Below are positions 27,984 to 61,445 of a stretch of DNA of 64,000 nucleotides, piece by piece. Location of the stretch: the NCBI GenBank assembly GCA_965197745.1, contig CBDANS010000006.1, forward strand, positions 1,376,001 to 1,440,000, read 5' to 3'. Position 1 is the stretch's first letter. The number at the start of each line of letters is the position of its first letter. Source of the DNA: Opitutales bacterium (lineage in GTDB: Bacteria; Verrucomicrobiota; Verrucomicrobiia; Opitutales; PNEW01). The notes under the pieces are model-generated. The model was not told the origin of the DNA. It saw only the letters and a program-made list of their open reading frames with translations, and made no database searches. The position numbers were made by a program, and so were the translations under genes.

Positions 27984-28424
27984 TGTCATTGCGAGGGAGG
28001 TTATCAATCGATCGCGGCTACCGAGCGCAGCAACATCTCTCATTCCAGGCGAATAGTCATTGTGGTTACGGATACTATTCTCTGCTCTAAAACATGATTA
28101 ACCGGATATATAATGTTATTTGGCAATCGTCTACTGAGCGAAGCCTTGCATCCAGGGACTGCGATTACGCAACAGATATTCCCCTGGATTGCTTCGTCAC
28201 TTCGCTCCTCGCAATGACATTTAAGACGAAGATTAACGCATATCCCATAGATGAATATATATTACAGAATAATGGAGGGACGCGCGTTGTCGCGTCCATG
28301 AAAGTCGTACCCAAAGCGGCCACGACGACGCGTGGCCCTCCAAAAATACATCATTGACACGTTGAACGCGGTACCTGCCTGTCATAGTTCTCCCGCAACT
28401 GCGGGACTACGACGTGGCAAGCGA
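27984..28424. repeat. Repeat cluster: filled TGTCATTGCG palindrome, inverted GGAG-REP doublet, CCTG-element remnants
   Basis: Palindrome 27984-28219 with 23-nt insert 28018-28040; GGAGGGACGCGCGTTGTCGCGTCC 28274-28297 facing GGCCACGACGACGCGTGGCCCTCC 28318-28341; TCCCGCAACTGCGGGA 28391-28406. Confidence 0.85.
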
Positions 28425-41478: not shown

Positions 41479-41648
41479 AAAGTGTTATTCTGACTGTGAT
41501 AATCTATTCCTGTAAATGTAATTATGAGTTACGATCATTAATCTTCAGTTTGCTGTCGATCAATAAGTATTATTGAAACAATCTCTTCAGGGTAAGCATT
41601 TCGTTCACCTCAGCGCGTTTTTATAATTATAGTGAAATTCATTTTATT

Positions 41649-42181
41649 TGGAGGGACGCGCTCCGTCGCGTCCGTGGATATTCCATTGAAAGCCGTAATC
41701 CAAAGCGGCCACGACGAAGCGTGGCCCTCCAGAAATTCATCATAGCCAGGTGGAGCACGGTGTCCCTGCCGTGATTAGTAAAGTAATAAATAAAGAAGCG
41801 TGCTGGGACAGCCCGCTCCACCTATGTTTTATGCTATCGCAGGTTGAACGAGCTGTCCCTAGCGCGTATGTAGTAATTAAAAAATAAAAAATAGCGTTCT
41901 CTTGATCAGCTGTCGTCCCAATAAATTCTTTACGGCCACGACAACGCGTGGCCCTCCGGAAAATTTGACCGTTGTTATGAGATTAGATGCCCATATTAAG
42001 GACGAAGATGTTTAAAATAAACTGGAGGGACGCGCGGTCGCCTGACGGCCATAGTTCCGCATCTGCGAGGCGACGGCTGATCGCGTCCACGTATTTAATA
42101 ATCAGAGATTAAGAAGCGTGCTGAGATCAACCTTCGTCCCGCGGTGGCGGGACTACGGCGTGACAGGCAGCCCGCTCCACC
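41649..42181. repeat. Dense REP cluster with empty and filled copies
   Basis: GGAG-REPs 41650-41673, 41707-41730, 41934-41957 and filled 42024-42088; GTGG-REPs 41748-41774, 41793-41822, 41840-41867 and filled 42111-42181. Confidence 0.9.
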
Positions 42182-42294
42182 GTAAATTATGATAAAAATA
42201 TAAAATTGTTTACACTGATAATTAAGGCACATAGACAGTAAAGACCTGAAACAGGCAATTGAGATTTTATGAATAAAAAATTTATGGAGGATTC

Positions 42295-43134
42295 ATGAAA
42301 CCCAAGTTAGCCTGTCCCGACTTCACTTTTCCATTGTTAAAACATGAACAGGCGCTGCAGCTGATTGCCATGCTGGGTATCAAAGGTGTGGATATCGGAT
42401 TGTTTGAAAAGCGATCGCATCTCCAACCATCAATTGAGTTCAAAAATGTGCGGCGTTCAGCATATCGATTAAAAGGGAAGCTGGACAATCTTGGGCTGAA
42501 AGCAGCCGATGTTTTCATGCAACCTGCAGGGGATTTCCGAACCAACGCGATCAACCATCCCCAGCGATCGCGCCGTCGACGGATGCGTGACTGGTACCTG
42601 AAAACACTGGAGTACGCAGCAGGGTGTAAATGCAGACATGTCACGATAACGCCCGGCGCTCATTTCGAAGGAGAATTATACCGTGATTCCTTTGCCCGGG
42701 CCGTTGAGGAATTACAATGGCGGGTAGATGAGGCCAAACACCATCGCATCGTTCTGGGAGTCGAAGCGCACTTAGGATCGATTGTCCCTCGACCCAAACC
42801 TGCGGAAAAACTGGTAAAAAGTGTTCCCGGGTTGACACTGACCTTGGACTACGGGCACTTCATACGCGATGGTTGTTCGGAAGCGGTTATAGAACCGCTG
42901 CTCAAGTATGCCAGTCACTTCCATGTGCGCGGAGGATCCAGGAAGCGTTTGCAGGAAAGCTTTGATAGCAACACCATTGATTTTAAAAGAATATATAAAG
43001 TGATGCAGAAAACAGGGTACCGTGGATGGCTTTCGCTTGAGTACGTCTGGACCGATTGGGAGCATTGCAATGAGTGCGATAATCTTTCTGAGACAATTCG
43101 CTATCGGGATTTTTTTCGGATGCTGGCAAACTGA
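42295..43134 (+). CDS. Sugar phosphate isomerase/epimerase (AP-endonuclease-2 TIM barrel)
   Basis: GVEAH, LDYGH, HFHVR, LSLEY; GGAGG RBS. Confidence 0.88.
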   Translation: MKPKLACPDFTFPLLKHEQALQLIAMLGIKGVDIGLFEKRSHLQPSIEFKNVRRSAYRLKGKLDNLGLKAADVFMQPAGDFRTNAINHPQRSRRRRMRDWYLKTLEYAAGCKCRHVTITPGAHFEGELYRDSFARAVEELQWRVDEAKHHRIVLGVEAHLGSIVPRPKPAEKLVKSVPGLTLTLDYGHFIRDGCSEAVIEPLLKYASHFHVRGGSRKRLQESFDSNTIDFKRIYKVMQKTGYRGWLSLEYVWTDWEHCNECDNLSETIRYRDFFRMLAN

Positions 43135-43320
43135 AGATACAAGAAAAATAGGGGAGCAAGATGTATTCCATTGGTATGACTTTCAATCTGAAACCCAGAT
43201 GTTACCCCGAGTATAAAGAAGCTCAGACATATTATAGCCTGAGATCGCGGAGCATTTGGCAGTCAACAAAGTAAATATGGCGATCCACTGCTTTGGGGAA
43301 CGGCTATCATGGACAACTCA

Positions 43321-43433
43321 CGGACGCGACAACGCGCGTCCCTCCATTATTCTGTTAATAATAATATTTATCTGGAGGGCCACGCGTCGTCGTGGGCGTA
43401 TCGAATTATATGGGGTCTACGACGTGGCAAGCG
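43321..43433. repeat. GGAG-REP pair (empty copies)
   Basis: GGACGCGACAACGCGCGTCCCTCC 43322-43345 and GGAGGGCCACGCGTCGTCGTGGGC 43374-43397. Confidence 0.85.
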
Positions 43434-43459
43434 CAAACCAAGTATATTAACGATTAGGA

Positions 43460-44920
43460 TCAGCATTCTGGAAATGGCAACTGGGTGAGTGCTCGCCAGT
43501 AAGCCGGGCCGCGTAAAGATTCCCCGTGCAATGGAGCTTCGGTGCCAATGATTCGATCGATGAGCATTCTGCTCATACGCGTGAGCTGCTCCCGGTAGTC
43601 GGGATTAGGGTAGAGATTGTGGATTTCGTCGGGGTCTTGATCGAGATCATAAAGTTCGCCGTAGTCTTGACCGGGGTAATGAATGAGTTTCCAGCGTTGC
43701 TCTCTCAGCATCTTGACCGCGCCAATTTCCGCAAAAATTGATGATCGCTTCGGCGACGTCTCGCCGCGCAAATCTGAATTCAATTCATGCCCCTGGATCT
43801 GGGAGGGGCGATCTATCCCCAGTTCATTGACGATAGTCGGAAAGATATCGATCAATTCGATGGGTTCTTTCACATTGTTGCCTCGACTAGCTTGGGGTGA
43901 TGGGGACCGAATGATCAATGGAACACGCAATGAGACATCATAGAGCATCGGGTATTCGTCTTTGGGTTTTTGCAGCATTCCGTGATGACCGAGTAGTTCC
44001 CCGTGATCGGACAAGAAAACAATAAGGGTATCATCCAGCAATCCAAGTTGCGTCAGGGAATTCATGATTTTACCAACTTGATCATCTATCATTGTAATCG
44101 AAGCATAGTAATAGGCGATGACACGTTGTAATCTTTCCCTGTCCAGATTTTCATAATTACTCGTTCTTCCTTCGACCTTATACTTCGCTTGCTGAGGCGG
44201 TTTTCCGGACAGGTCGCTATGAAATGAAGCCGGTAGTGGCATATCCGCGGGGTCATACAGGGACGCGTAGGGCTCGGGAGGTTCAAACGGATTATGAGGG
44301 TTAGGAAAACCGACAAAGAGGAAAAAGGGTGTGTCGGACGAACGGTTATGAAGATAGGCAACCGCCTGATCGGCTGCCCACACATCAAAGTAAGCTTCAG
44401 CAGGGATGCAATTCACCGTGCATTGAAATGAATCCAGATATTCCTGAGTGGCATGGTGTGTGTAAGAACGATGAAAGTAATCCCAATAACCGTTATCTTT
44501 AATCCACTTTTTATAGTGTGGGTACAATACCTCGGGATCGGTTGCGGCGGAGTTCTGCCCCTCACACAGCATCTGTTCGGCAAAAGAGGCATTTGTTTTC
44601 TCTTCGAACAAGTGTACTTTTCCCGTGGCGCAGGTATCCCATCCCAATGATTTTAAGAACTCGGGTAGGGTCACTTCCTCTTCATGCATGGCGCAGTGGT
44701 TGGAAATCGCTCCATTGGTATGCGGATACCTGCCCGTAAGCATTGAAGAACGGCTGGGCACACATTGTGGATGCTGCGCAAAAGCAGAGTCGAAACGTGT
44801 TCCTGCGGCCGCTAATTTATCCAGGTATGGCGTCTTGACGATGGCATTGCCATAACAACCGACACTATCCGCGCGCAACTGATCAGCGAGCATGAATATT
44901 ACATTTCGGGAATTTGCCAT
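43460..44920 (-). CDS. Sulfatase
   Basis: ADQLR, CVPSRSSMLTGRYP, GKVH, PHNP, SDHG. Confidence 0.95.
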   Translation of the reverse strand: MANSRNVIFMLADQLRADSVGCYGNAIVKTPYLDKLAAAGTRFDSAFAQHPQCVPSRSSMLTGRYPHTNGAISNHCAMHEEEVTLPEFLKSLGWDTCATGKVHLFEEKTNASFAEQMLCEGQNSAATDPEVLYPHYKKWIKDNGYWDYFHRSYTHHATQEYLDSFQCTVNCIPAEAYFDVWAADQAVAYLHNRSSDTPFFLFVGFPNPHNPFEPPEPYASLYDPADMPLPASFHSDLSGKPPQQAKYKVEGRTSNYENLDRERLQRVIAYYYASITMIDDQVGKIMNSLTQLGLLDDTLIVFLSDHGELLGHHGMLQKPKDEYPMLYDVSLRVPLIIRSPSPQASRGNNVKEPIELIDIFPTIVNELGIDRPSQIQGHELNSDLRGETSPKRSSIFAEIGAVKMLREQRWKLIHYPGQDYGELYDLDQDPDEIHNLYPNPDYREQLTRMSRMLIDRIIGTEAPLHGESLRGPAYWRALTQLPFPEC

Positions 44921-44995
44921 TTATTTTCCTTATCTTGTTCAGCTATTGCATTGGGCCATGGTTGTTTTATTCCTCTGATATAACACATGTCTAGC

Positions 44996-45156
44996 TCATT
45001 GCGTGGGAGGCCACCAGCTGGCCCCGACTACCGAGTCTCGCGACTGCGAAGCGGCATCTTCCATTCCAGGAGAATAGCCGTCGTGTTTACGATTACCACT
45101 CTATCTACTATAAATTTTTCCATTGAAGCTTCGTCTCTTCACTCCTCGCAATGACA
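44996..45156. repeat. Degenerate TGTCATTGCG palindrome with CTACCGAG-type insert
   Basis: TCATTGCGTGGGAG...CTACCGAGTCTCGCGACTGCGAAGCGGCATCTTC...CTCCTCGCAATGACA. Confidence 0.75.
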
Positions 45157-45245
45157 ATAGGACGCGGACGAAGTTTTAAACTTTGAGAAATAATAAATCC
45201 CTTAAGCTCCACCGCATACTTGATTTTCTCATTTACGCATAACCC

Positions 45246-46823
45246 TCATTTCCCTTCACGGTCCTTAAGTTCCGGCCAGATGCTGCGCATCTGCCAGGCG
45301 TCTATTGAGACAAGCGATGCTTCACTGCCTCGTGCGAAGACTGAGACCCCATTGCTGTCGTCACGATCAGGATAGGCGCGAATAGTCAAACATTGCGTCC
45401 CGTTAGCGAATACTTCAACGATGGATCGGTCGATGAAGATGTGCAGGTGAAGAAGTTCTCCTATATCAAGTTTAAGGGGCCCTGTTTCAGGAATGCGCGC
45501 GAGAACATCACTTCGCAGAGATGAAGACGAAACATCAATCTGGAGCGAGCTGATGGTGTTCTGGCGCGAGCTTATAATTTCAGGTATGTTTTTCCGAAAG
45601 AGCGTGACACATGTCTGCTCTGTGCCTTCGGGCGAACGAAAAACGCATAGTCCCACTTCTCGTGCATCATGCGGATCGATGACGGCGTAAATCTCCATTG
45701 CTTTTCCATTAATGCTCGCTAAGACAATTTCACCATTTGCGGGAATTTTCTTTGACTCGATGCGTCGGTGATCGAATCGCAATGTTTCGAGTTCGTTAAC
45801 CGGCTCGATTTTGAGAGTGTTATCTGCATCCAATGACAGACATCGAGGGACAGTCATAATATCGTTCCATCCCTCTCGCGGCTTACCTTCTTTGACATTA
45901 AAGAATGCGATAAACCTGCCTTTATCGTCGATCATAGCCCCGGGTGCGTGCAGACTGCCGACCACAAAAGCTCCATAATTCATGCGCCCATGGTAATCCG
46001 GCATGAAGCGATGTGCTGTCCGGTCGTATGTGCCGACATAGTACTGCGCGGCGCGTTTGTGACTGAAAAAAAGGAGCATATGCTTTCCGTTAGCAATGGG
46101 CCAGAAGTTAGGGACTGCACTGTCTTCTCCTGGTTCGGTGAAACCCCCGTGCTCGATTAATGGACCAAGATATTCCCATTCTGCCAGGTCTTTAGAGTGG
46201 AATAATGGATTCACCCCTCGGCAATTATTTCCAATGTCACCGTCCTTGTAGGTGCCAGATAGGGCGTAATAGCCGTCTTCTTCTTTCCAGATACAGGGGT
46301 CGAAGACACGGTAGGGAGCACCGTTTTCGTCAATGGGCACGATCGGAATAACCGGATTATTTAGATGCTTTTTCCAGTTCAGCAGCAGCGGATCGGAAGC
46401 GGTAGCGATGGCATTGCCCGATTCTGTGCCGTGATAGATGGCTACCACCCGGTCTTCTTCAACCAGGGTCTGTCCGCTGTAGCAGTCCTTTTCTGTATCG
46501 GGGTAAATCGCGGGAGGCAGATCGCGCCAATGGACGAGATCATCGCTTACAAAGTGTCCCCACATGACCCTGTCCACACCATCAGGCTTAAACTGGTAGA
46601 AAAGATGGTAATTCCCCTGCCAATAGCAGGGACCATTAGGGTCGTTCATTACATTTTCGGGTGGCGAGAGATGGTAAAGCGGACGATAGGGATCGTCAGC
46701 CAGTCGTTCCCGCGATGCTTTGAACTTTAATAGATCTTCATCCCTATCCAACGCTTTAAGCTGTTCCTCGAGAGTGTCGGGAAATGTTTTCCCCCGCAGC
46801 GCTTCATATTTATGAACAGGCAT
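45246..46823 (-). CDS. Glycoside hydrolase family 32 protein
   Basis: MNDPNG, YHLFYQ, WGH, YSG, FDP, DRSIVEVF; the canonical RDP reads FDP and no EC motif is evident. Confidence 0.88.
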   Translation of the reverse strand: MPVHKYEALRGKTFPDTLEEQLKALDRDEDLLKFKASRERLADDPYRPLYHLSPPENVMNDPNGPCYWQGNYHLFYQFKPDGVDRVMWGHFVSDDLVHWRDLPPAIYPDTEKDCYSGQTLVEEDRVVAIYHGTESGNAIATASDPLLLNWKKHLNNPVIPIVPIDENGAPYRVFDPCIWKEEDGYYALSGTYKDGDIGNNCRGVNPLFHSKDLAEWEYLGPLIEHGGFTEPGEDSAVPNFWPIANGKHMLLFFSHKRAAQYYVGTYDRTAHRFMPDYHGRMNYGAFVVGSLHAPGAMIDDKGRFIAFFNVKEGKPREGWNDIMTVPRCLSLDADNTLKIEPVNELETLRFDHRRIESKKIPANGEIVLASINGKAMEIYAVIDPHDAREVGLCVFRSPEGTEQTCVTLFRKNIPEIISSRQNTISSLQIDVSSSSLRSDVLARIPETGPLKLDIGELLHLHIFIDRSIVEVFANGTQCLTIRAYPDRDDSNGVSVFARGSEASLVSIDAWQMRSIWPELKDREGK

Positions 46824-46880
46824 AGTATAATTTCCTCTACAATGTCTATCTACGTATTATCCGTATCGGGACCTGTTATT

Positions 46881-47606
46881 CTAAACGTTTCGATTTACAC
46901 TACTGAAATAGACTAAATAGATCTGTTCGTCCGTGACATTAATTATGGTATGACCGGGATCACAGGGACAAACCGATATCGTGGTTCCTTCTGATTGGAT
47001 ACAGACTTCCTGGCTTACGAGATGAACAGCCTGACCTCGCCACATGTACCATACTTCGTCAAAATCAGGTCCATGACCATGATTATCGCCGGTTCGAAGA
47101 GGATCGATTAATACCACACCCACATACCCCAGCTCATTAAAACCGTCTTCCTGGTCAAAGAGTCGATAACCCAGATAACACCAGTGGTTAATGCTCATAA
47201 CGCTTTCTCGATAGTTGCGAACCAGGGGTTTGTTTGCTCTATTCGCGGATTCATCGGAAAGTGATTCAACGACCAGTAAAAATTCCATTGGGGTGGGTCC
47301 GTCATTATTAATGGTATATTCAATACCTGGCGGCATAAGAATGCCATCGCCTTCTCTGAGTGCCTGCTCACTATTGGGAGTACTCAATATACCCGATCCA
47401 TTTAGAATAAAGAAGACTTCCTGAATACCTTCATTGATTTGGGCAAGTGATCGCGTTCCCGTTTCCAAAGAGCAGTGTGAATAAGAATCGATATAGCGTA
47501 GCACTGATTCAGAACTATTATCTCCTTCTTTGCGAAAGATCGTTCGTTGAACGATGTTTCCATGAGTGAGGGAAAGATCGCCTTCTTTCCAGTGTCGCTT
47601 ATCCAT
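46881..47606 (-). CDS. Bicupin protein
   Basis: QEVFFILNGSG...EGDGILMPPG and HGH...DEVWY...GH cupin motifs. Confidence 0.75.
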   Translation of the reverse strand: MDKRHWKEGDLSLTHGNIVQRTIFRKEGDNSSESVLRYIDSYSHCSLETGTRSLAQINEGIQEVFFILNGSGILSTPNSEQALREGDGILMPPGIEYTINNDGPTPMEFLLVVESLSDESANRANKPLVRNYRESVMSINHWCYLGYRLFDQEDGFNELGYVGVVLIDPLRTGDNHGHGPDFDEVWYMWRGQAVHLVSQEVCIQSEGTTISVCPCDPGHTIINVTDEQIYLVYFSSVNRNV

Positions 47607-47626
47607 TTGACCTCCTGACTATTGAA

Positions 47627-48607
47627 TTAACCTCGCAGCGCGCGCAATAGCAATTCTTTATCGATATTCCCTCCCGATAAAACCAACCCTGTTTTTTTTC
47701 CCGCCATCCTTTCTTTTTCCTTTATTAAGGCTGCCAGCGGACTTGCCCCAGCGCCCTCGGCGACATTATGCGTATCGGTGTAATAGAATCGAATAGCATC
47801 AAACATTTCATTATCAGAAACAGTTACGATTCGAGTCACCCCTTGTATTATAAATTTTAAAGCGATCGCGTCAGGAACCCGGACCGCAAGTCCGTCGGCA
47901 AAAGTATCACAGGTATCCGTTGATTCACATTTTTTATGATTAAAGGAAAGCGCATATGCAGGAGCTTTTTCCGAGACAACACCCACGATCTCTGTTTTCA
48001 AATTCAATGCATTGCGGGCATTGACCATACCGCAAATTCCAGAACCTAAACCTATGGGTACGTAGACGGTGTGCAAGTCAGGAACCGCCTTCAATAACTC
48101 AACACCGCAGGTGCCTACACCCTGAACGAGCAATGGATGAAAAGAGGGAAACATATGCAGGTTCTCCTTATCAGCCAATTCCCTGGCATATTCCAATGCG
48201 GTATTAAAATCTTCTCCATGTTCAATTAATTCGGCACCATATGCTTTCATCGCACGGTTTTTTTCTGGGCTATTTCCATGGGGAATTACAACGACTGCCC
48301 GAAGGCCCTTTTTCTTAGCGGCATAAGCAACACTCTGCCCATGGTTACCTCGTGTTGCGGCGACTACACCGGAAATTTCTCTTTCACTTTCAATCTTATT
48401 TTCTAAATACCAGATGCCACCCCGGACCTTAAACGAGCCCGTGGGTAAATGATTTTCATGTTTGGTCCAAACTTCACATCCGCACCTTTCACACAAAAGC
48501 GGCCATGCAATCTGTGGGGTAGGTGAGAGGTGTTCATAAATTACGGAAGAAGCCGACTCAAAATCGGATAGAGAAATGGCTATATGCTCACTATCTTTTA
48601 ATTCCAT
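47627..48607 (-). CDS. Threonine/serine dehydratase (PLP)
   Basis: KHENHLPTGSFKVRG, TRGNHG, PIGLGSG, LSGGN; start uncertain. Confidence 0.9.
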   Translation of the reverse strand: MELKDSEHIAISLSDFESASSVIYEHLSPTPQIAWPLLCERCGCEVWTKHENHLPTGSFKVRGGIWYLENKIESEREISGVVAATRGNHGQSVAYAAKKKGLRAVVVIPHGNSPEKNRAMKAYGAELIEHGEDFNTALEYARELADKENLHMFPSFHPLLVQGVGTCGVELLKAVPDLHTVYVPIGLGSGICGMVNARNALNLKTEIVGVVSEKAPAYALSFNHKKCESTDTCDTFADGLAVRVPDAIALKFIIQGVTRIVTVSDNEMFDAIRFYYTDTHNVAEGAGASPLAALIKEKERMAGKKTGLVLSGGNIDKELLLRALRG

Positions 48608-48698
48608 TAATTCCTGACTAACGATACTAGCACAGCTTCGCAAGCTGAACAATCAAATGCTCATCTTTGTTCTCTGCATAGAATAAAAATAAATGAAT

Positions 48699-49178
48699 GG
48701 TGGAGTGGGCTGTCACAGCACGCTTCTTAAACCCTGATTAACAATAATACAAACGCGGTAGGGACCAGCCGTCGTCCCGTCCCGCAATCGCGGGGGGACT
48801 ATGGCCGGCAGGCGACAACGCGCGTCCCTCCATTAATTTGTTAGAAATATTCATTTAAATTTAGGTTATGAATCTTCGTCTTCGTCTATCTCCAATAAAA
48901 TATAATATAATGACAGTTCAAATCGAGACGAAATGGTGGAGCGGGCTCCCCAGCACGCTTCTTTTTTTACTGAACATAAACGCGGTAGGGACACGATTCT
49001 ACTGAGCTCGTCGCAGGCCGCGTTCCACCTGGCAATGATGCCGATTCGGAGGGCCACGCGATGCCTGTCATGCCGTAATCCTCCCGCGACTGCGGGATGG
49101 GACGAAGGCAGATCGTAGCCGTATTAGGGTTCAGCATTCAATAGACAATCCGCGGACGCAACGGATTGCGTCTCTCCA
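48699..49178. repeat. Dense REP cluster with empty, filled and chimeric copies
   Basis: Empty 48699-48728 and 48935-48964; chimera 48752-48832; filled 48979-49030 and 49048-49121; 49153-49178. Confidence 0.88.
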
Positions 49179-49733
49179 TTATTCAGTCTTTGGTTCTAGA
49201 GATATATCATGGAACTGAGTCCCTGACACCAAACCCATGCTTTCACCGCTTGTTATTGAAATCGCCCCGTGTATCTCCTCATTAATGCCCCAGAATACCA
49301 GTTCCTGCCCTTTGCTTTCGTAGATCGTTACTTCCCCTCCACGATTCACGATCGCGTGCAATTGAACATAGCCATCAGCTCTTTTATTATAAGTCATGAC
49401 TAAACCATCTCCAATTTTATTGGATCCGAGGGAAGCGACTACTTCGCCATCATCACCGACGACTTCAAATCTTTTAATTTGGACAATTTCAGGTTCCTTA
49501 TGCAACGATGGAGTCGTTTCCTGAAGCCCAGTGGTGTTCCCTTGAACCATAGACGAGGCATCCTCTTTTGCGCGTATTTCGTCAATCATGTATGTTCTTG
49601 ATTCCAGAACAAAATGGAGCGTGAAAATTAAAACAACCCCAACGCCGAATAAAACTATACCCATACTAAACAAGGCCAGTTTTAATCGGCTGTTTTGTTG
49701 TTCTAAGTGATGAAAACGATCTTCTAATTTCAT
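49179..49733 (-). CDS. Hypothetical single-TM protein
   Basis: Short coiled coil (LEDRFHHLEQQNSRLK), one TM helix, Gly-rich beta C-terminus. Confidence 0.65.
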   Translation of the reverse strand: MKLEDRFHHLEQQNSRLKLALFSMGIVLFGVGVVLIFTLHFVLESRTYMIDEIRAKEDASSMVQGNTTGLQETTPSLHKEPEIVQIKRFEVVGDDGEVVASLGSNKIGDGLVMTYNKRADGYVQLHAIVNRGGEVTIYESKGQELVFWGINEEIHGAISITSGESMGLVSGTQFHDISLEPKTE

Positions 49734-50075
49734 TAGCTTGGCGCTATTTATCAGTTGCTTTTAAAGACAGAGGTAAGGCTGGATTGTCAGGAAAAGGGCT
49801 GCAGTCATAATAAGAAGGAATAATAAATACCAGAGTGACTGCGGTAACAGATTTTACGCTGAAGTAAATAATCTGTAATCAGTAATTGAGTCATAGATAA
49901 ACTGTTTTGTCAAAATCTTTCATCATTAACAATTTTCCTGGTTCCGCTTCAGGGTCACTGCCCATAAGCCAAAACATATTCCTCGGGGATGTTTTTATTT
50001 TTATCGATTATGCCCTTCACATTTTCATAAAAGTAAGGCACGGGACAATGACTCATTCTCATTGGGTCAGAATCT

Positions 50076-50522
50076 TTAAATTTTCTTTATGAAATGAACG
50101 AGTCGCAGATTTTCACGAAAACCCAAAGCTTTGTGCGCTGCGACACTAGTGACATTTTCAAGCTCAGCGTCGCTTGCCAGTTCGCTGAATCCTTTTTCTT
50201 TAACCCATTTTTCCGCTGACTCCACTAATTTTCGTCCAATTCCCTGGCCTCTATATTGGGTGTCAACATACCACCCTTCGAGATAGCCGACATGTGAGGA
50301 AAGAGAGCCGTCCACTCTTGATCTGATGGATAGCTCAGCAAATCCCCGTGGTTTATTTTTCGTGTCGAGAAAAAACAAAACGGTCTTTGTCTCAGGTTTA
50401 GCCAGGTATTCATTCATTTCAACAGCGTGCATTTCATCGCTGCACTCTGGCCATAAAGCTTTACGCATACGTCTCCATGCGTCCCAATCCCCTTTTATGT
50501 AAGGTCTAATTTCCACAGCCAA
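50076..50522 (-). CDS. GNAT acetyltransferase, AAC(6')-I-like
   Basis: MRKALWP, GFAELSIR, YLEGWYV, RGQGIG, ELASDA, AAHKALGF. Confidence 0.85.
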   Translation of the reverse strand: MAVEIRPYIKGDWDAWRRMRKALWPECSDEMHAVEMNEYLAKPETKTVLFFLDTKNKPRGFAELSIRSRVDGSLSSHVGYLEGWYVDTQYRGQGIGRKLVESAEKWVKEKGFSELASDAELENVTSVAAHKALGFRENLRLVHFIKKI

Positions 50523-50553
50523 TGGGCTACAATAGCGGTGCAGATCGGCATCT

Positions 50554-51339
50554 TTATACTAAGTAATTACTGGGTATACGGGTGCGTTCGTATAGGGCTT
50601 CAGGAATGCGATTGAGAATTGATTCGGGAATCTCACCGGACCAATTATGCGGCACCGTTTTGGGCCGCCGATTCCAAAACAATAACAGGGTGCGACGATG
50701 ATCACTGTTATTGCTGTGTGCTGCATGTAACATCCTTCCCTCGGCAATGACAAGAGAGCCGGCTTTAACCGGGACATCGATGGCTTCAGGATGGTCGCAG
50801 AACATGTCAGGATCCTGTTGGTCTACATTATGGGCTCCTTCGGCATGGGGCGGAATTAATCGATCATGGAGATCAATGCGTTTCAGGTGGGTGCCGGGTA
50901 TGACGCGAAGACAGCCGTTCTCAACCCTGGTCTCCACGAGGTAATAGGAAAAGAACAAATACTGTGGCCAGGGTGCGGCACTTATGGGGTCATTCCAATC
51001 CCCCCAATCCTGATGCCAATACAGCGCCGGACCACCCGGGGGCTTACTGAGAACAATTAGCGTTTCATCTGGCTTAAAATCGCCCAGCCCCAGTGCTTCT
51101 ATTGCGACGTACGCGGGCTGCCAGTGAATCAGCCGGTCGATCACGGGTTCGTCACTGGCATTCACGCGAAGATCCGACCCCTGGTACTTCCAGTGTGCGG
51201 GATGTTCAACCGCGTCAAGCATGCGATCAGTCTCCCGCCGTAGTTCGTCGAGAATGTTTTCACTCAATACATTTTCGATGATGCAGTAACCATCGGTGAT
51301 CAACTGGATCCGTTTTTCTGCTGTTTCATCAGGGTTCAT
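50554..51339 (-). CDS. PhyH family dioxygenase
   Basis: DGYC, WHQD, ENGCLRVIPGTH, LHAAHSN...RR. Confidence 0.92.
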   Translation of the reverse strand: MNPDETAEKRIQLITDGYCIIENVLSENILDELRRETDRMLDAVEHPAHWKYQGSDLRVNASDEPVIDRLIHWQPAYVAIEALGLGDFKPDETLIVLSKPPGGPALYWHQDWGDWNDPISAAPWPQYLFFSYYLVETRVENGCLRVIPGTHLKRIDLHDRLIPPHAEGAHNVDQQDPDMFCDHPEAIDVPVKAGSLVIAEGRMLHAAHSNNSDHRRTLLLFWNRRPKTVPHNWSGEIPESILNRIPEALYERTRIPSNYLV

Positions 51340-51568
51340 GCGGGAATGCTTTATTTCTTAAGGTTCCAGTTAATAAAGCAAAGGACCAGACAATTGTAAA
51401 TAATTTGTAAGGTATTTATCAATAAAGTGTTAAAGGTGCAACCGGGGGGTTTAATGATTTGCTAATAAGGTGAAGATATACTATAAATGAATCTAATACA
51501 CTATTAATAGAGCTGCACATTTAGAAGATAAATAATTTTCACGAGATAAGATAAATGGAGAGAAAACG

Positions 51569-52156
51569 ATGAACAGAACAAACGACACAATGATAATCTG
51601 GCCTTTCGGTCTTCGAAAGGAATATACCTCCCGTCTTGGTGTGGCCGGCATGGGTGTTGTGAATGGACCCAAAAAAGGGGACAACATCAATTCATATGAA
51701 ATCTCATATGCAGATAGAAGCAAAGACTGGGATGATCCTTATGTAGAAAAACTCAGGGATCTGGCGTTGTCTTACTGGTTGGGATCGGAATATGACATTG
51801 CGTTAATCAAGATAGAAAAATTAAGCTCAACTATCGAACCGGTTACCAGTGTATACCATGTTTTTGACGCGCTCACGCATACTGCTTTAAAACTAAAGTA
51901 TGACTTCGACTGGAACGATGCGAGGTCTTGCCACCTATCATTAAATTCGGTCGATTATTCGATACTAATTCCTTTTCTCTTAACCTACTATAACGGTGTC
52001 TTTATCGATGACACGATGCTGGGTGAAAGTTGGGTGAATTATCACCGAATAATTACCAAAAGCATCCCACCTAAAATTAAAATACATCAAAAAGGGAAGA
52101 AGGATTTAAGATTTCTACAATCAGAAACATGTAAATACGCCCTGGAAAAAGAATAG
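51569..52156 (+). CDS. Hypothetical protein
   Basis: 195-aa AT-rich ORF with GGAGAG upstream; no motif recognised. Confidence 0.5.
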   Translation: MNRTNDTMIIWPFGLRKEYTSRLGVAGMGVVNGPKKGDNINSYEISYADRSKDWDDPYVEKLRDLALSYWLGSEYDIALIKIEKLSSTIEPVTSVYHVFDALTHTALKLKYDFDWNDARSCHLSLNSVDYSILIPFLLTYYNGVFIDDTMLGESWVNYHRIITKSIPPKIKIHQKGKKDLRFLQSETCKYALEKE

Positions 52157-52224
52157 ACAATTTTACTATCACCTAAAATAAATGATTGTTCAACAAACCG
52201 ACTTTTTAATACTTGTAGTTCGCA

Positions 52225-52692
52225 ATGAAAAATTCCCAAAAATTTGGGGAGATGCTAGCCTTTACCCTGGTAGAAATGATGATTGCTGTCGTCATCGTCG
52301 GTCTATTGGCATCGTTTGCGATTCCCGCGTTTAGAAGAGCGAATACAAAGTCTATGAATTCCCGCCTTCTCAATGATTATCGAATTCATGCCGAAGCATT
52401 CAAGCGCTATGCCCTGGAAACTGGTAACTACCCACCCGATGGGGGATTTGGTTCCATGCCAGCAGGTATGGATGAATATTTACCCTCCACATGGCTAGAC
52501 TCACCCGCGGGCGGTCAGTGGATTTGGGATTATAACCAATGGGGCATCACCGCAGGAATAAGTATTCGCAATCCCAGTGTCGGAACCCAACAAATGGCGT
52601 TGCTCGATGCACAACTGGATGACGGCGATCTCGCGACAGGATATTTCCGAAAGGTTAATGCAGATCGTTTCACTCTTGTAATCGAGGAGTAA
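52225..52692 (+). CDS. Prepilin-type N-terminal cleavage/methylation domain protein (pseudopilin)
   Basis: AFTLVEMMIAVVIVGLLASFAIP. Confidence 0.9.
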   Translation: MKNSQKFGEMLAFTLVEMMIAVVIVGLLASFAIPAFRRANTKSMNSRLLNDYRIHAEAFKRYALETGNYPPDGGFGSMPAGMDEYLPSTWLDSPAGGQWIWDYNQWGITAGISIRNPSVGTQQMALLDAQLDDGDLATGYFRKVNADRFTLVIEE

Positions 52693-52710
52693 GGCTCGAG
52701 ATCATTAACC

Positions 52711-55350
52711 TTATTGCAAAGCGCGCATTCTTATTTTCACGCAGCGCTCGTCTTCCTGGTGGTTGACTTTAAGGCGTTTCATTACAATCGAGCTTAGATC
52801 CGGGTGCTCATCTATAAACTGTTTGATTTGTTTCACGCTTTGATCGGAACAGAGCGTCGGGGTTAAATAACGAGCATAACTGGAGGTAAAAACATCGGGT
52901 TTGTGTTCGATGAGGAGCAAAAGATTGTTGAAAATATCGTGGGTAAATTGCTGGTGGAGAGTTTCCTGCTCAAAGGGAAAAAGATGCGTCATCACGACAC
53001 GAGCGCGTGCCATGGGAAGTGGAGAATCCAAATTCAAAAGTTTATCTATCCATTCCTCTTTGATCCCATTATCCGGTTGTACCACTAAAGCGGCTAAGGA
53101 TGACTTTTTACCTTTTTCCGAACCGTCTTTTTCAAGTTCAGCGAGACGAAGCGCTTCGGCTGTCGGATAACGATGTTTATTAAGGTGAATAACAATGTTC
53201 CAACGGCGATCCTGGTCGAGAGTATATTTTTTAAGTTTTAAATTGCCGTTGAGTAATGACTCCAACCGTGTGAGAGCCTCTGATGATCGGGCCATGCTGG
53301 TATAAGTATCCAGCCATAATTTTTGAAAATCTGATTTACCTTTAGCGGCGGTTAATTTTGACCAAAGGAAACTCTCACTCATCTCAATATACGCTTGTCT
53401 TTTGGCAATATCTTCCGGGGAACATTTTGGGAGGAAATATAGGGCGGCCTTCATACGATCCGCGGTTCGCGTCGCTATTTTGATATCCCTCTCATTTGAT
53501 AAATGTTCAAACATGATGGAGATATAGTCCCAAATCGATATTTCCAACGCTCGCACCATGTCCCAGAGGGATTGCCAAAACATCATGCGGACAAATGGAT
53601 CTTTGATTACGGACAGGTATGACTCGGCAGCCTGTAGCGTTGCGTTATCGAGCTGGACGTTGATAAAATCATAGTCACCGTGATTGGGATAAATTAGTAA
53701 TGGACAATTTTTTTGATGAAGTTGAAGAACGGGAGTTTCATCTGCTGAATAGATGACAGGGATGGATTGATTCAAAACGATCTTTCCGTCTTGAAGGGAA
53801 TACAGTCCCACCAGTGTTTTATGCTCTCGTAACCGCGGATAATTCGGTTGCGCTGTCTGCTTGAGGGTAAATGTCGTAATTTTATTATCGATGCACGTAA
53901 GCTCAGCCTTAAGATTGTTATGGTTAGAAGTTTTTAACCATGAATTGGTCCAAACCTTAAGATTTTTTCCCGAAGCATGGGACAGAGAATTTATAAAGTC
54001 GGCCATCACCGTATTTTTGAACGCATAATTTTTAAAATAATGCCGCACACCCTCCCTGAAATTCACAGGGCCCAAAAGGTGAGAGAGTTGTTTTAAAGCC
54101 GAAGCGCCTTTACCATAGGTGATGCCGTCAAAATTGGCGAATCCCTGTTGCGTGTCTGGGACTTCAGCGACAATGGGATGTGTGGTGACGAGGCGATCTT
54201 CCCAATAAGCCCATTGTTTAGTGCGATTATAAAATGTCTGCCACGCTAATTTAAATTCTGTCGCTTCAGCAAGGGCAAGGGAGGCCATATAGGTTGCGAA
54301 ACTTTCATTGAGCCACAAGTCATCCCACCATTTCATCGTTACCAGATTACCAAACCACATATGGGCCATTTCATGTAGAATGGTATTAGCTCTTCGTTCA
54401 CGCTGATTGTAAGTTGGCGTCCCTTTTGGCATATAGCTTTCATTAAAGGTCACCGCGCCGGTATTTTCCATCGCCCCGGCATTAAAGTCGGGGACAATCA
54501 ATTGATCGTATTTTCCAAAGGGGTAAGGGGTGTCGAAGTAATTTTGAAAAAAGTCGAAACCCTGTTTCGTGATTAAAAACCATTCATTTACATTCATGTA
54601 CTTGGCAAACGATTGACGGGAGAAAATCCTTAAGGGAATATTCCCTGCTTGGGATTTCCAGACCCTATAAGGACCGGCATGAAGGGAGAAAATATAAGTG
54701 CTGAATACTTCGCTTCTGGGAAAGATCCACTGTTTGCGTTGTAAAGGAATTTTATTTATTTCCGATTCCCGGTTTGAAGTCACAACCTTCCAATTCTCAG
54801 GAACCTCAACTTTCAATGCGTAACTGGCCTTAATGTCCGGTTGATCGAAACAGGGGAAGAGCAAATTGGCATCATAGGGTTCAAAGTCGGTATAAAGATA
54901 AACATTTTCATCTTCCGGATCTTTAAATCGATAGAGCCCGGAACCCGATTTACTATAGGGGTGCTGATACTCAACGGAAATAACATTGGTTCCCTTCCGT
55001 AACCATTGGGGTGCAATCGCAATAAAATAATTATTATAGGAAAAATTCTCGAACGGTTGCCTGTTTAAATTAAGGGTAATGATACTACCGCCTTCAAAGT
55101 CGATAGTGAGCGGGGCGTTATTATCATTTAATTCAAAAAAAATAATAACATTTCCTGAAAAATCTTTTTCTACTCGATCAAGTGAAAGCGAAAGTTCATA
55201 GCGCACGTTGCTGACAATCTTCGCTCGTTGCTCAGCGTCTATTTTTGTGAGGCCTCGGATCGCTTCTCGTGCGGATAATCCCTGTCCGGCAATGAATAGG
55301 GTAATAGCGACGGTTAAGAAGACGGATAGTTTCAGCGAATCTTTCCCCAT
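52711..55350 (-). CDS. pepN: Aminopeptidase N (M1)
   Basis: GAMEN, HEMAHMWFG...WLNESFA, YGKG; signal peptide. Confidence 0.95.
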   Translation of the reverse strand: MGKDSLKLSVFLTVAITLFIAGQGLSAREAIRGLTKIDAEQRAKIVSNVRYELSLSLDRVEKDFSGNVIIFFELNDNNAPLTIDFEGGSIITLNLNRQPFENFSYNNYFIAIAPQWLRKGTNVISVEYQHPYSKSGSGLYRFKDPEDENVYLYTDFEPYDANLLFPCFDQPDIKASYALKVEVPENWKVVTSNRESEINKIPLQRKQWIFPRSEVFSTYIFSLHAGPYRVWKSQAGNIPLRIFSRQSFAKYMNVNEWFLITKQGFDFFQNYFDTPYPFGKYDQLIVPDFNAGAMENTGAVTFNESYMPKGTPTYNQRERRANTILHEMAHMWFGNLVTMKWWDDLWLNESFATYMASLALAEATEFKLAWQTFYNRTKQWAYWEDRLVTTHPIVAEVPDTQQGFANFDGITYGKGASALKQLSHLLGPVNFREGVRHYFKNYAFKNTVMADFINSLSHASGKNLKVWTNSWLKTSNHNNLKAELTCIDNKITTFTLKQTAQPNYPRLREHKTLVGLYSLQDGKIVLNQSIPVIYSADETPVLQLHQKNCPLLIYPNHGDYDFINVQLDNATLQAAESYLSVIKDPFVRMMFWQSLWDMVRALEISIWDYISIMFEHLSNERDIKIATRTADRMKAALYFLPKCSPEDIAKRQAYIEMSESFLWSKLTAAKGKSDFQKLWLDTYTSMARSSEALTRLESLLNGNLKLKKYTLDQDRRWNIVIHLNKHRYPTAEALRLAELEKDGSEKGKKSSLAALVVQPDNGIKEEWIDKLLNLDSPLPMARARVVMTHLFPFEQETLHQQFTHDIFNNLLLLIEHKPDVFTSSYARYLTPTLCSDQSVKQIKQFIDEHPDLSSIVMKRLKVNHQEDERCVKIRMRALQ

Positions 55351-55455
55351 GTCCGTAGTGTTAAATTTCCGGGTATCCTGATGGCAAGTGAAGGGATAGG
55401 GTATAATGAGGATGCTACCGACAGAAACCTAAGTCTATAGCGTAGGTAGTGCCAT

Positions 55456-55830
55456 TCACTTGCGAAGTGAATAGACCGGGGATTCTTTTGCCGTGTCTGC
55501 AAGTTTTTGCGTCGTTCGCTTCAGACGTGCAGTCAAAGTCTTGATAATGGCTAAACCGACATCCGGATTTTCCTGAATAAGCTTTCGCATATCGTCAGCC
55601 ACGACGTGGACAACCTTACTGGGTTCTTTTGCTTTTACGGTACAGGTCCGCGGTTCACCAAGAAAGTCACCCATCTCGCCAAAGATGGTGCCTGGATGCT
55701 TGAGCACGCTGAGTAGTATGCCATCTTTGATAACTTCCAGATTTCCCGACTCGAGGATATAAAAACCCCCGTCCGTTTGTCCCTGTTCAATGATAACCTG
55801 CCCCGGCGAAACTTCTAAATATTCTTCCAT
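55456..55830 (-). CDS. Cyclic-nucleotide-binding domain protein
   Basis: IIEQG, FYILESG, FGEMG...PRTCTV. Confidence 0.9.
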   Translation of the reverse strand: MEEYLEVSPGQVIIEQGQTDGGFYILESGNLEVIKDGILLSVLKHPGTIFGEMGDFLGEPRTCTVKAKEPSKVVHVVADDMRKLIQENPDVGLAIIKTLTARLKRTTQKLADTAKESPVYSLRK

Positions 55831-56134
55831 GGATCCTTATTCCTGTGATTAATCGGTGAGAACTAAATCAGAAAGTCAAACTTTACCTTAAAATTTATTT
55901 TTGATTTTGCCCTTTTGGCAAGCTTAGTCTTATTGACACATCCCAGGGGGTCAATTCTCTGCCAAGGGAACATTGTCCTTACGCTGGATACTTAATCATA
56001 TATACAGGGCGCACTTACAGAGAGGGTTGGAGATAAATAAATTTTTAAAAACTGGAATTTATTTTATTTCTTTGGCTCTTATAGGTCTAATTGTTAGCGA
56101 TAAACGGTGAAAAAAATCAAATTGAGAAAGCATC

Positions 56135-58363: not shown

Positions 58364-58386
58364 TCACACATCTGAAAAAGGATTTT

Positions 58387-58923
58387 TTACGTGTATCGCA
58401 GTGCTAAGGCGATAACCGTGGCCCAGCCCAGAACCTTGAACTTGCCGGCTGAAAGAGCGGCTTCCACTTCGGAACGACTGAGTCTTTGAAGTTCCTGTTC
58501 TTCCAGATCATCTGAGTTAGATTCAGACACCTGGCGCGCTTCACGGGCAAGAAAAAGATGGGCAATGCCAGCACCTCGATTGCCGTCCACGATATAATCT
58601 CCCAGATGAATCCAATCCCCTGCTACATACCCGGTCTCTTCCAGGAGCTCCCGTTGTGCGGCGGTAAGGGAGTCTTCACCCGGTTCCAGGTATCCTCCCA
58701 CCGGTGCAAGCGTTATTCCCTCCACACTGTATTTAGTCTGACGGAAGCAAAGATACTCACCTTTTTCGGTTACCGCGGCAATATTTACGTAGTCGGGAGT
58801 GATAATCCAGGGCCAATCATCAATCACTTTACCGTCGGGTAACTCAACTGCGTGATTTTCGACAAGTAAATAACTGCTGTGATTCAAGATAGTTTCTCGG
58901 GAGAGCGTTTTCCAGGGTTTCAC
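58387..58923 (-). CDS. NUDIX hydrolase
   Basis: GGYLEPGEDSLTAAQRELLEETGY Nudix box. Confidence 0.93.
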   Translation of the reverse strand: MKPWKTLSRETILNHSSYLLVENHAVELPDGKVIDDWPWIITPDYVNIAAVTEKGEYLCFRQTKYSVEGITLAPVGGYLEPGEDSLTAAQRELLEETGYVAGDWIHLGDYIVDGNRGAGIAHLFLAREARQVSESNSDDLEEQELQRLSRSEVEAALSAGKFKVLGWATVIALALRYT

Positions 58924-59039
58924 AGGGTCGAAGTTCCTTGCTTAAATTATATTAAGATCATGCGATTTTTTTAATAGGTGATTAATCCCTATTTAACAAT
59001 AATACAAACGCGGACGAGGCCCTTAATTACGAAATAAAT

Positions 59040-59185
59040 GGTGGAGCGGGCTACCTGTCACGCCGTAGTCCCGCCACCGCGGGACGGGAATACGGTTGAT
59101 CCCAGCCCGCTTCTTTTTTATTACTTATCCGAAAACGTGGTAGGGACACGATTCGACTGAGCTCGTCGCAGGCCGCGTTCCTCCT
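59040..59185. repeat. Inverted pair of GTGG-REPs, both filled
   Basis: Inserts at 59054-59099 and 59149-59172. Confidence 0.85.
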
Positions 59186-59329
59186 GGCATTCTCATGGAA
59201 ATATGCCACACGTCCAACAACCTTAACCCTTAGCCAACTATTTCAATTTACGGAGAAATATATGTTGCAGGATGGAATAGAGTTTTGTATTGGCTATACG
59301 AATTCTAAAAATTAACTAATACAACACTT

Positions 59330-60061
59330 ATGAGTAGCGAGACATTCATCCAGGCATTACAATCAGAAATCGATAAAAGACACCTGTTAAAGCACCCGTT
59401 TTATCAAATGTGGAATCGTGGAACATTACCCATAGAGGTGATGAGAAAATATGCTGAACAGTACTACCATTTAGAAAAGAATTTTCCGACATTCTTAAGT
59501 CGAATGCATGCAGCTTGTGCCAATGATGAATTCGAGGTGCGTCAGGCTATCACTGATAATCTCTATGATGAAGAACACGGCCCTGAAAATCACCGTGAAT
59601 TGTGGCTGCGATTTGGAGAGGGGATTGGCGCGACACGCACCGATATGCAGGGTTCAGTGCCATTGGCTGAAACCCAGGCGGCTATTGATACCTTTAGTGA
59701 GTTGGCCTCCAATTCATACCTGGAGGGTGTCGGCGCATTGGCTGCTTACGAATCACAAATTCCTGCAGTCGCTGAGACGAAACTGGATGGATTGGAAAAT
59801 AATTACCAGATGACAGATGAGCGAAGCCAAAGGTTTTTCAAGGTTCACGGCATCATGGATATCGAGCACGCAAATTCCTGGTGGGACATTATTCGAAAGC
59901 ACGCGGACAACGAGGAGAAGGAAAATAAGGTGACCGAAGCAGTGAAGAGAGGGAGAGACGCGCTCTGGAGTTTTCTCGACGGAGTCAGCCGCACTTATAT
60001 GCCAGAAGAAGAGCAGGAAGAAATGGAATTGCTCTATGCAGAGGTGGCTCCACCCGCCTGA
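59330..60061 (+). CDS. CADD-family heme-oxygenase-like dimetal oxidase (putative pABA synthase)
   Basis: HPFY..W, YAEQYY, DEEHG..NH, YESQ, ETKL, H...D..H match Chlamydia CT610/CADD motifs; immediately upstream of folP-folK. Confidence 0.9.
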   Translation: MSSETFIQALQSEIDKRHLLKHPFYQMWNRGTLPIEVMRKYAEQYYHLEKNFPTFLSRMHAACANDEFEVRQAITDNLYDEEHGPENHRELWLRFGEGIGATRTDMQGSVPLAETQAAIDTFSELASNSYLEGVGALAAYESQIPAVAETKLDGLENNYQMTDERSQRFFKVHGIMDIEHANSWWDIIRKHADNEEKENKVTEAVKRGRDALWSFLDGVSRTYMPEEEQEEMELLYAEVAPPA

Positions 60062-60067
60062 TCGCAT

Positions 60068-60880: not shown

Positions 60881-60885
60881 TAATA

Positions 60886-61341: not shown

Positions 61342-61345
61342 ATAA

Positions 61346-61445
61346 AAGGTGCCAGTGTTTCCTTCGACTACGCTCAGGACAGGCATGGGTTCGGGGTTCA
61401 GTGGGAGAAGGTGTCGGGGTTCAGATACCAGTAAACAGTGAACAG
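61346..61445. repeat. Heptamer array with 24-nt CCTG insert (61360-61383)
   Basis: TCCTTCGACTACGCTCAGGACAGG within GGGTTCG/GGGTTCA repeats; inverted copy at 63423-63472. Confidence 0.8.

Follow-up and report, generated by a model that had tools for sequence, protein, structure and literature searches.

The window analysed here is a stretch of 64,000 nucleotides from an Opitutales bacterium (C6:1376001-1440000, where C6 is one of the 7 contigs of a 4.45-Mb genome with ~45% G+C), and its repeats contain small hairpin-forming inserts nested precisely within other repeats, which we assign to two families termed E (30-49 nt) and S (24 nt). The inserts in the window are far beyond chance. Taken as a whole, the best explanation seems to be that they are small non-autonomous modules residing in repetitive extragenic palindromic (REP) sequences and moved as folded single strands by a Y1/HUH enzyme, a reading to which we give a probability of roughly 0.55. 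An initial annotation had placed empty and filled repeats of the window side by side, and all the strings that it quoted are present at their coordinates and on their strands, including the 24-mers, one of which starts with CCCG, and the heptamer register kept around one of them. It had counted three otherwise different inserts, which we reduce to two families, since its two 24-mers are one homologous family, S.

The E and S Families

An E element reads, from 5' to 3', CYTG, a 6-7-nt arm of the stem P1, RTAG, a variable hairpin, GAM (GAC or GAA) and the complementary arm; the last paired base of P1 is also the last nucleotide of the element, and RTA/GAM forms an internal loop. A structural scan yielded 53 candidates, 4 of which were judged false, and 45 distinct sequences were left after removal of these and of identical duplicates, 38 of them being aligned. 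In the 38 copies, 95.5% of the cells are paired under the proposed fold and 7 of the 14 pairs have changed on both sides; the covariation score is 0.333 compared with 0.184 in shuffles, a value reached by none of 500 shuffles, and sliding the partner by 1-3 columns lets the paired cells fall to 24-58%. The outermost pair is UA in 24 copies, CG in 9, AU in 4 and UG in 1. The T, A and G of RTAG are invariant in all 38 copies, and this tetranucleotide lies directly 5' of the hairpin, as in REPs. The column pair 7-49 is G.U in 21 copies, and the fold is specific to the CCTG strand because such G.U pairs are many.

A covariance model of E, termed R1, gave at least 100 matches in the genome at an E-value of no more than 0.01, among the best 150 of 1510 first-look candidates that were scored. 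Two regions, ~0.64-1.07 Mb of C7 and 0.59-0.73 Mb of C6, show strong clusters of E copies and of empty hairpins of the host type H1 described below. At gathering scores Rfam gave 0 matches in the window, and at an E-value of up to 10 only chance-level matches in 41600-42250. Other identities were considered for E as well. Its 5' part resembles the start of 5S rRNA (CCTGG.GGCCATAGC), the genome's own 5S reads TCTGGTGATCATAGG, and the 5S model matched the true gene only, so that this candidate was dropped. For the internal loop, a hammerhead, a k-turn and a loop E were considered, none of which has Rfam support.

The S family has the form CCTG-NNN-YGAGCNNAGYCGAA-N'N'N', that is, 24 nt closed by a covarying 3-bp clamp. 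Among the 36 full-clamp hits of a regular expression 32 are convincing, with the clamps CGA/TCG (15), TCC/GGR (7), CCC/GGG (6), CCA/TGG (2), TCA/TGA (1) and TGA/TCA (1). Across the genome there are 30 occurrences of the S pattern, compared with 1 of a reversed control pattern, and S is abundant only in this genome (G000), in the relatives G001 and G002, and in G018 and G064. Tandem S pairs, 24-25 nt from start to start, are found at C1:6989/7013, 390750/390774, 4014559/4014583 and 4048572/4048597 of G001, and at C2:1472786/1472810 of G002.

Host Repeats and RAYT Genes

The two main hosts, H1 and H2, are ordinary REPs of RAYT (REP-associated Y1 tyrosine transposase) systems, an already described kind. 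H1 is built as GGAGGG-stem-loop-stem, H2 as GGTGGA-stem-TGTCCC-stem. H2 starts with G-GTGG-A; H1 starts with GGAG instead of GTRG, and the resemblance of its head motif to that of typical REPs is only partial. There are 141 empty H1 hairpins in the genome, with the loops CTCCGT (74), CGTTGT (26), CGTCGT (25) and others (16), and ~36 that are filled with E. Read on the other strand, the REPs show a hairpin followed by CTCCA (H1) or TCCACCA (H2), which may resemble a minihelix with a CCA-like tail.

By way of a small Y1-like protein adjoining E copies in the relatives G001 and G002, two 161-aa RAYT paralogues were located in the own genome (L160:1333-1818 and L161:1465-1950), which match NCBIfam NF047646, 'REP-associated tyrosine transposase', at 83.6 and 87.2 bits (cut-off 80). 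Their translations show the HUH (HIH) and Y..NNP motifs, and both genes have GGAGGG (H1) hairpins on either side. The RAYTs of G001 and G002 have 145-156 aa and score 80.4 and 78.1 bits against NF047646; GGTGGA (H2) hairpins lie on both sides of these genes, several of them filled with E or S. The initial annotation had proposed to look for HUH genes flanked by CCTG hairpins, and what was found is H1 hairpins around the own RAYT genes, and E inside H2 REPs at the RAYT loci of the relatives. It had also considered a match to a described REP family, which applies to the hosts, known REPs with RAYT genes; for the inserts, the searches of Rfam and of the literature turned up no prior description.

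A search of the own genome with PF01797 returned one IS200-like gene only (L001, C6:163380). As a candidate enzyme it was set aside, being RAYT-like at 66.6 bits, below the cut-off, with no repeat hairpins around it, and apparently split into two overlapping frames. In the surrounding region (C6:161880-165206) a 198-aa Y1 open reading frame is followed by an overlapping one of 171 aa in another frame, and a second copy of the C-terminal domain lies on the other strand; L001 looks like a frameshifted gene or an assembly error.

Junctions and Independent Insertions

The ends of E are exact. When 12 nt from each side of the element are joined, 33 of 87 copies yield a sequence that is also present elsewhere (252 matches in total), whereas junctions shifted by 1-2 nt give 0-3 matches. 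The test requires an exact 10-mer across the junction, and most H1 sites fail it because the left half of the loop has diverged. Both E and S stand in one orientation relative to the REP host, lack a target duplication and lie mostly 3' of YTG; the left flank of E ends in TG in 48 of the 87 copies and the right flank starts with TC in 56. The discrete inserts with exact junctions and no target duplication claimed earlier are therefore borne out. The targets comprise hairpin loops, heptamer arrays, which are entered in register, tRNA 3' ends, and E itself directly after CCTG, such self-nesting being found at C6:972383 and C7:1536320.

Could each composite have arisen only once, and then been amplified together with its REP host, the pairs of empty and filled sites being variants of one REP family shuffled by recombination? 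Some composites are indeed clearly co-amplified, such as the identical copies clustered at C6:137059, 138699 and 143680. The 8 copies in TTAACACC context have near-identical long flanks, and the CGA/TCG form of S shows one host and one junction in 14 of 14 copies of this genome. However, one E subfamily, TCGGCC/GGCTGA, is present in the three host classes H1a (6), H1b (7) and H5 (2). The H2b position holds several subfamilies (CCGGCC, CCAGCC, ACGGCC/ACAGCC and TCCGAY forms), the H2a position holds ACGGCC and TCACGCC forms, and single host positions carry 2-4 subfamilies. Furthermore, E occurs in heptamer arrays, at tRNA ends and in E itself, single-module differences between orthologous loci leave the REP intact, and the same core is found in unrelated local hairpins of other phyla. 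An absence of independent mobility is therefore very improbable and largely refuted. The insertions into hosts are independent, precise events and not one ancestral event, as the repeated entry into other repeats proposed at the outset implies, and the confinement of an insert to one host and one junction holds for the CGA/TCG S form alone, not for E. Since the single S junction and the co-amplified composites stand alongside independent events, both processes are involved, that is, a limited number of insertions followed by copying with the REP.

Orthologous loci allow a direct comparison. The RAYT loci of the congeneric genomes G001 (L156) and G002 (L150) are 96.4% identical over 525 nt of the gene. 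Upstream of it, the hairpin GGTGGAACGCGG|TGTCCCTACCGCG is empty in G002, and in G001 it holds a 24-nt S at the bar; downstream, GGTGGAGCGGGCTG|TCCCTAGCGCG is empty in G002, and in G001 a 30-nt E is present at the bar. A third H2a hairpin of the locus is empty in G002 and holds a truncated E in G001. The difference may be due to insertion or to precise excision, which are indistinguishable here. The presence/absence check that had been suggested was thus answered by the G001/G002 pair, which differ by one S and one E; in the contigs of four public runs over 41500-61400, which break at repeats, no listed joint leaves out precisely one insert. At 48994 and 49064, contigs from two of these runs span the filled state.

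There are also H2a hairpins with two modules at one site, namely a 24-nt S-like piece in opposite orientation (CGATTCGGCTGAGCTCA.CGAAGT) and then E, at L158:1291-1370 and 2141-2235 of G001 and at C6:284564 of G000.

Distribution and tRNA Genes

In an exact-pattern scan that covered one genome per species, the E core was found in 19 loci, each copy in a different local context. The hosts are metagenome-assembled genomes (MAGs) of Opitutales, Opitutaceae, Lacunisphaera and Oleiharenicola within the Verrucomicrobiota, of Saccharibacteria, Peregrinibacteria, Peribacteria and other Patescibacteria, and of Babeliales and Babeliaceae within the Dependentiae. Five of the scanned genomes have 60, 24, 7, 4 and 3 R1 matches, and E is multicopy in Patescibacteria. 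Counting the query genome in each sample, E is present in 27 of 151 Opitutales genomes and 17 of 151 Patescibacteria genomes. Outside its own phylum the element occupies the loops of local hairpins (L105, L116, L117 and L126), TTAACTG heptamer arrays, in register (L099, L107 and L113, in a Patescibacteria genome), and another E (L128); of 41 copies, 20 have TTG or CTG on their left.

Of 12 loci, 7 have a tRNA gene at a distance of no more than 250 nt, and 5 of 40 further loci have one within 100 nt. At L086, L118, L127 and L136 E ends in a TGG that doubles as the CCA of a tRNA on the opposite strand, and the same arrangement occurs in the own genome for one E (tRNA-Val) and two S (tRNA-Lys and tRNA-Leu, with the clamp CCA/TGG). 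The subfamilies at these four loci and at C5:56162, C6:764119 and C7:1614085 of G000 have a matching clamp, CCAGCC/GGCTGG or CCA/TGG. At three further loci of Patescibacteria and Peregrinibacteria (L085, L090 and L091), a 16-23-nt duplicate of the 5' part of the tRNA lies just upstream of tRNA-His, tRNA-Pro and tRNA-Ile, and is split by E at CAACTG|AGCTAC, in the D-arm.

This proximity to tRNA genes, a core conserved across phyla and a fold supported by covariation would also be expected if E were chiefly a functional structured RNA or a protein-binding module, for example in tRNA 3' processing or termination, with copies kept by selection and nesting as a secondary matter. However, no Rfam family matches, copies lie within heptamer arrays, each other and REP loops, and the distribution is patchy over the 151 genomes of each sample although 60-100 copies per genome are reached. 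We regard a chiefly functional role as decidedly improbable.

Which Enzyme Might Move the Inserts?

In the mechanism that we favor, E and S would be non-autonomous mobile DNA moving as a folded single strand, with a Y1/HUH enzyme of the RAYT/IS200 kind doing the cutting and joining in trans; candidates are the resident RAYTs or a relative. Such an enzyme would recognize the RTAG-plus-hairpin core. Once in a REP, both E and S are also copied with it. According to passages of PMC8266576 and PMC3333891, the substrates of RAYTs are single-stranded REPs, in which GTAG and a hairpin are both required. In addition, Y1 (PF01797) is enriched among carriers of E, being found in 24 of 27 E-positive and 54 of 124 E-negative Opitutales genomes (odds ratio 10.4, p 1.2e-5), and in 13 of 17 E-positive and 58 of 134 E-negative Patescibacteria genomes (odds ratio 4.3, p 0.018). 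All 4 loci of the small H2-type RAYT in G001 and G002 have R1 matches with an E-value of no more than 0.001, but E lies inside H2 REPs at these loci; of the other Y1 loci, 3 of 18 have weak R1 matches only (E-value 0.017-0.037). As the initial annotation had stated, the enzyme is not in the window.

Several observations, besides the co-amplified composites and the single S junction described above, weigh against this mechanism. Kinship, genome size and mobile-element load are confounders of the Y1 enrichment, and there are E-bearing genomes with no PF01797 match, namely G042 (17 copies, 72% complete), G229 (8), G031 (3) and G034 (4); G031 and G034 are ~1.2-1.3 Mb in size, and their records with E bear the title 'chromosome: 1'. 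A search of the own genome, at 92% completeness, gave no counterpart of the H2-type RAYT seen in the relatives. R1 has no match in the 1.5 kb around either of the two own RAYT genes, nor was any found at 7 further Y1 loci (one own, and six in G032, G033 and G035). The boundaries of the inserts are G|CCTG and N|T, unambiguous by sequence, and do not coincide with the C|T at which characterised RAYTs cut (passages of PMC3333891); models with C|T or C|C cleavage, tried by hand for the E ends, did not reproduce the observed junctions. No orientation bias of E with respect to the replication strand was seen, plus and minus copies being roughly equal in every tenth of C6 and C7 and on both GC-skew arms. 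Elements of the IS608 type show such a bias. As for movement itself, gene conversion from another REP copy could in principle be the route to the G001/G002 polymorphism. Many copies are old: one filled H1 site is shared, at an identical position, by the own genus and G001, with genes 80-84% identical and a different inner hairpin, and G002 lacks the whole repeat cluster that holds it.

Consequently, the attribution to HUH transposition made in the initial annotation stands as far as the RAYT genes, the RTAG-hairpin core and the confounded Y1 enrichment carry it, and it is weakened by the absence of strand bias, the junctions off C|T and the carriers lacking Y1. A RAYT-like HUH protein would be the best available enzyme, an attribution that we consider plausible and unproven, at somewhat less than even odds.

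Could a different DNA enzyme act on the folded single strands or cruciforms? An integron- or Xer-kind tyrosine recombinase, or an unknown nuclease-ligase, would then use the hairpin as an attC-type site with variable terminal structure. Insertion that is orientation-specific and lacks duplication would agree with this, as would the inner hairpin, whose length varies (30-49 nt) below a conserved internal loop, the targets in loops of unrelated hairpins in several phyla, and the junctions that differ from RAYT cut sites. However, E has no GTTRRRY-like core, no candidate gene was found adjoining the elements, and Y1 is the only family so far shown to be enriched, and we judge such an enzyme unlikely.

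A third route is an RNA intermediate, in which a folded transcript of the element would be converted back to DNA at hairpin loops and tRNA ends. Such an intermediate was reportedly proposed by Elhai and colleagues in 2008 for the small dispersed repeats (SDRs) of cyanobacteria. The CCTG-strand specificity that G.U pairs such as 7-49 give to the fold, the RNA-like A-C and G-A covariation in the internal loop of E, the elements next to tRNA 3' ends that contribute the CCA of the tRNA strand, and the RVT_1 genes in G035, G033 and G229 all point in this direction. Nevertheless, no RVT_1 was found in G042, which has 17 copies, nor in the own genome, which has at least 100 and in which the searches with RVT_1 (PF00078) and TnpB (PF07282) both gave no match; moreover, G.T wobbles are also common in the single-stranded DNA hairpins of REPs. 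The RNA route is therefore improbable, and movement of the modules as folded single-stranded DNA by a Y1/HUH enzyme is retained as the preferred reading.

Repeat Sites in the Window

One cluster of the window is an 816-bp stretch between two divergent open reading frames (one ending at 41478, the other starting at 42295), which is a chain of small hairpins, five of them empty and two filled. The first empty one, an H1 REP of the kind that flanks both RAYT genes of the genome, is GGAGGGACGCG-CTCCGT-CGCGTCC (41650-41673, forward strand), and the second, also H1, is GGAGGGCCACG-CTTCGT-CGTGGCC (41707-41730, reverse strand). The third is an H2-type variant, GGTGGAGCACGG|TGTCCCTGCCGTG (41749-41773, forward strand), quoted originally as the empty site for the 24-mer. 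The fourth is the empty H2a REP GGTGGAGCGGGCTG|TCCCAGCACGCTTCTT (41793-41822, reverse strand), which had been quoted as GGTGGAGCGGGCTG|TCCCAGCACGC, has a variant at 48699 and is backed by the rebuilt-empty counts. The fifth is an H1 REP whose loop, CGTTGT, is the form that matches filled sites (41934-41957, reverse strand). The first filled host is an H1 REP (42024-42088, forward strand) with arms at 42024-42040 and 42081-42088, which surround a 40-nt E on the same strand, CCTG ACGGCC ATAG hairpin GAC GGCTGA (42041-42080; R1 45.2 bits, E-value 2.7e-9). The second is an H2a REP (~42111-42181) with a 41-nt E on the reverse strand, CCTG TCACGCC GTAG TCCCGC-CACC-GCGGGA CGAA GGTTGA (42127-42167; R1 57 bits, E-value 3e-12).

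At an E-value of up to 0.05, R1 has 7 matches in the window, five of which are strong: the two above and those at 48765-48812, 49064-49112 and 59054-59099. The sixth and seventh are a single weak palindromic place matched on both strands (28378-28421 on the reverse strand and 28374-28417 on the forward strand). The E at 48765-48812 (reverse strand, 48 nt, 51.6 bits) had escaped the initial annotation. Its host is chimeric (48765-48830, reverse strand): the 5' arm and loop of an H1 (GGAGGGACGCGCGTTGTCG) precede E and the 3' half of an H2b (TCCCTACCGCGTT) follows it, two REP families being joined at the element. The 49-nt E at 49064-49112 (forward strand, 32.9 bits) belongs to the TCATGCC/GGCAGA subfamily and lies in an H1 REP, and the 46-nt E at 59054-59099 (forward strand, 41.7 bits) lies in an H2a-like REP (59040-59111). 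Further empty sites on the forward strand are the H1 REP GGAGGGACGCGCGTTG|TCGCGTCC (28274-28297) and the H1-like REP GGAGGGCCACGCGTCG|TCGTGGGC (43374-43397), previously given as GGAGGGCCACGCGTCG|TCGTGG.

Three S elements of 24 nt lie on the reverse strand in H2b or H2b-like REPs, namely 48994-49017 (clamp CGA/TCG, host at 48979-49029), 59149-59172 (clamp CGA/TCG, H2b-like host) and 6997-7020 (H2b host). Another 24-nt S, with the clamp TCC/GGA, is inside a CCCTGAA heptamer array whose register is kept, CCCTG|AACCCTG (62356-62379, forward strand); an S with the same clamp stands beside heptamer-like repeats (61360-61383, reverse strand), and the S that starts with CCCG is at 63436-63459 (forward strand). 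The commonest 11-mers of the whole genome belong to other repeat families: TGTCATTGCGAGG...GCGAAGCGACGA (up to 131 copies), GAGGGCGTAGCCCGAA (~90) and GACGAAGACGA (~114).

Implications

E and S look like some of the smallest mobile DNA known. To our knowledge, there is essentially one earlier record of very small mobile repeats, that of Nostocaceae. Here, several handles on the mechanism are offered, that is, a covariation-backed fold, exact ends, a target preference, the REP-RAYT setting and orthologous empty/filled pairs, and E also occurs in very small Patescibacteria genomes with few candidate enzymes. Because the fold is defined, and given the REP-RAYT setting, the orthologous pairs and the breadth of distribution, the mechanism is open to direct tests on oligonucleotides, for which two or three purified proteins would suffice. 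The mosaic of a REP array can thus have several layers, which bears on REPIN population studies, on the annotation of intergenic hairpins near tRNA genes and on repeat-aware MAG assembly.

A bolder reading, tentative and on the whole rather doubtful, is that E might be a horizontally spreading 30-49-nt element of Verrucomicrobiota, Patescibacteria and Dependentiae that would consist only of a folded recognition structure. Its targets would be exposed single-stranded loops (those of REPs, terminator hairpins, slipped heptamers, tRNA gene ends and E), which it would enter after YTG and without duplication, and it would borrow a widespread Y1/HUH enzyme or a still unknown one. If this were true, E would be the smallest cross-phylum transposable element and a second layer of parasites on REP-RAYT systems.

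Comparison with Known Systems

Searches of the literature on nested and miniature repeats and on RAYT/REPIN nesting turned up no description of inserts inside REP loops, and the string CTGTCGGCCATAG gave no match there. Some known systems nevertheless share features with E and S. The bacterial interspersed mosaic elements (BIMEs) of enterobacteria are likewise mosaic intergenic arrays of REPs and other short motifs, but the extra motifs of BIMEs lie between the REPs, whereas E and S lie within their loops. IS1397, work on which appears by title in the reference list of PMC3116915, also takes REP loops as insertion targets, but it is a full-size insertion sequence.

The IS200/IS605 elements and their miniature derivatives, the palindrome-associated transposable elements (PATEs), share with E and S the single-strand logic, a hairpin with a short adjacent motif, and insertion 3' of a short target without duplication. 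However, E and S have one composite hairpin instead of two subterminal ones and are 5-10 times smaller, E shows no strand bias, and the target, only about YTG, is shorter and looser than the TTAC or TTGAT of IS200/IS605. With REPIN-RAYT systems (REPtrons), E shares the core of RTAG and hairpin, and its host hairpins are themselves REPs that flank RAYT genes. Unlike REPINs, E has an extra outer stem, a conserved 5' CYTG and junctions off C|T, and it is spread across phyla, whereas REPIN-RAYT systems are described as mostly vertically inherited.

The closest precedent for the inserts is the cyanobacterial SDRs (SDR1-8, Nostocaceae). According to Elhai and colleagues, SDRs are reportedly 21-27 nt long, insert precisely without duplication and are embedded in tandem heptamers and in themselves; they are also said to share a fold backed by compensatory changes. 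The likeness lies in the 24 nt of S and its in-register heptamer array, E in TTAACTG heptamers, self-nesting and a covarying fold. On the other hand, E, at 30-49 nt, exceeds the length of SDRs and resides mainly in REP loops. Neither R1 nor the S pattern has a match in the N. punctiforme plasmid pNPUN01 (354,564 bases), the sole Nostoc record searched. Further statements on SDRs were drawn from passages of PMC4390886. According to passages of PMC5861425, SDRs are reported only from Nostocaceae, whereas E and S occur in Verrucomicrobiota, and E also in Patescibacteria and Dependentiae.

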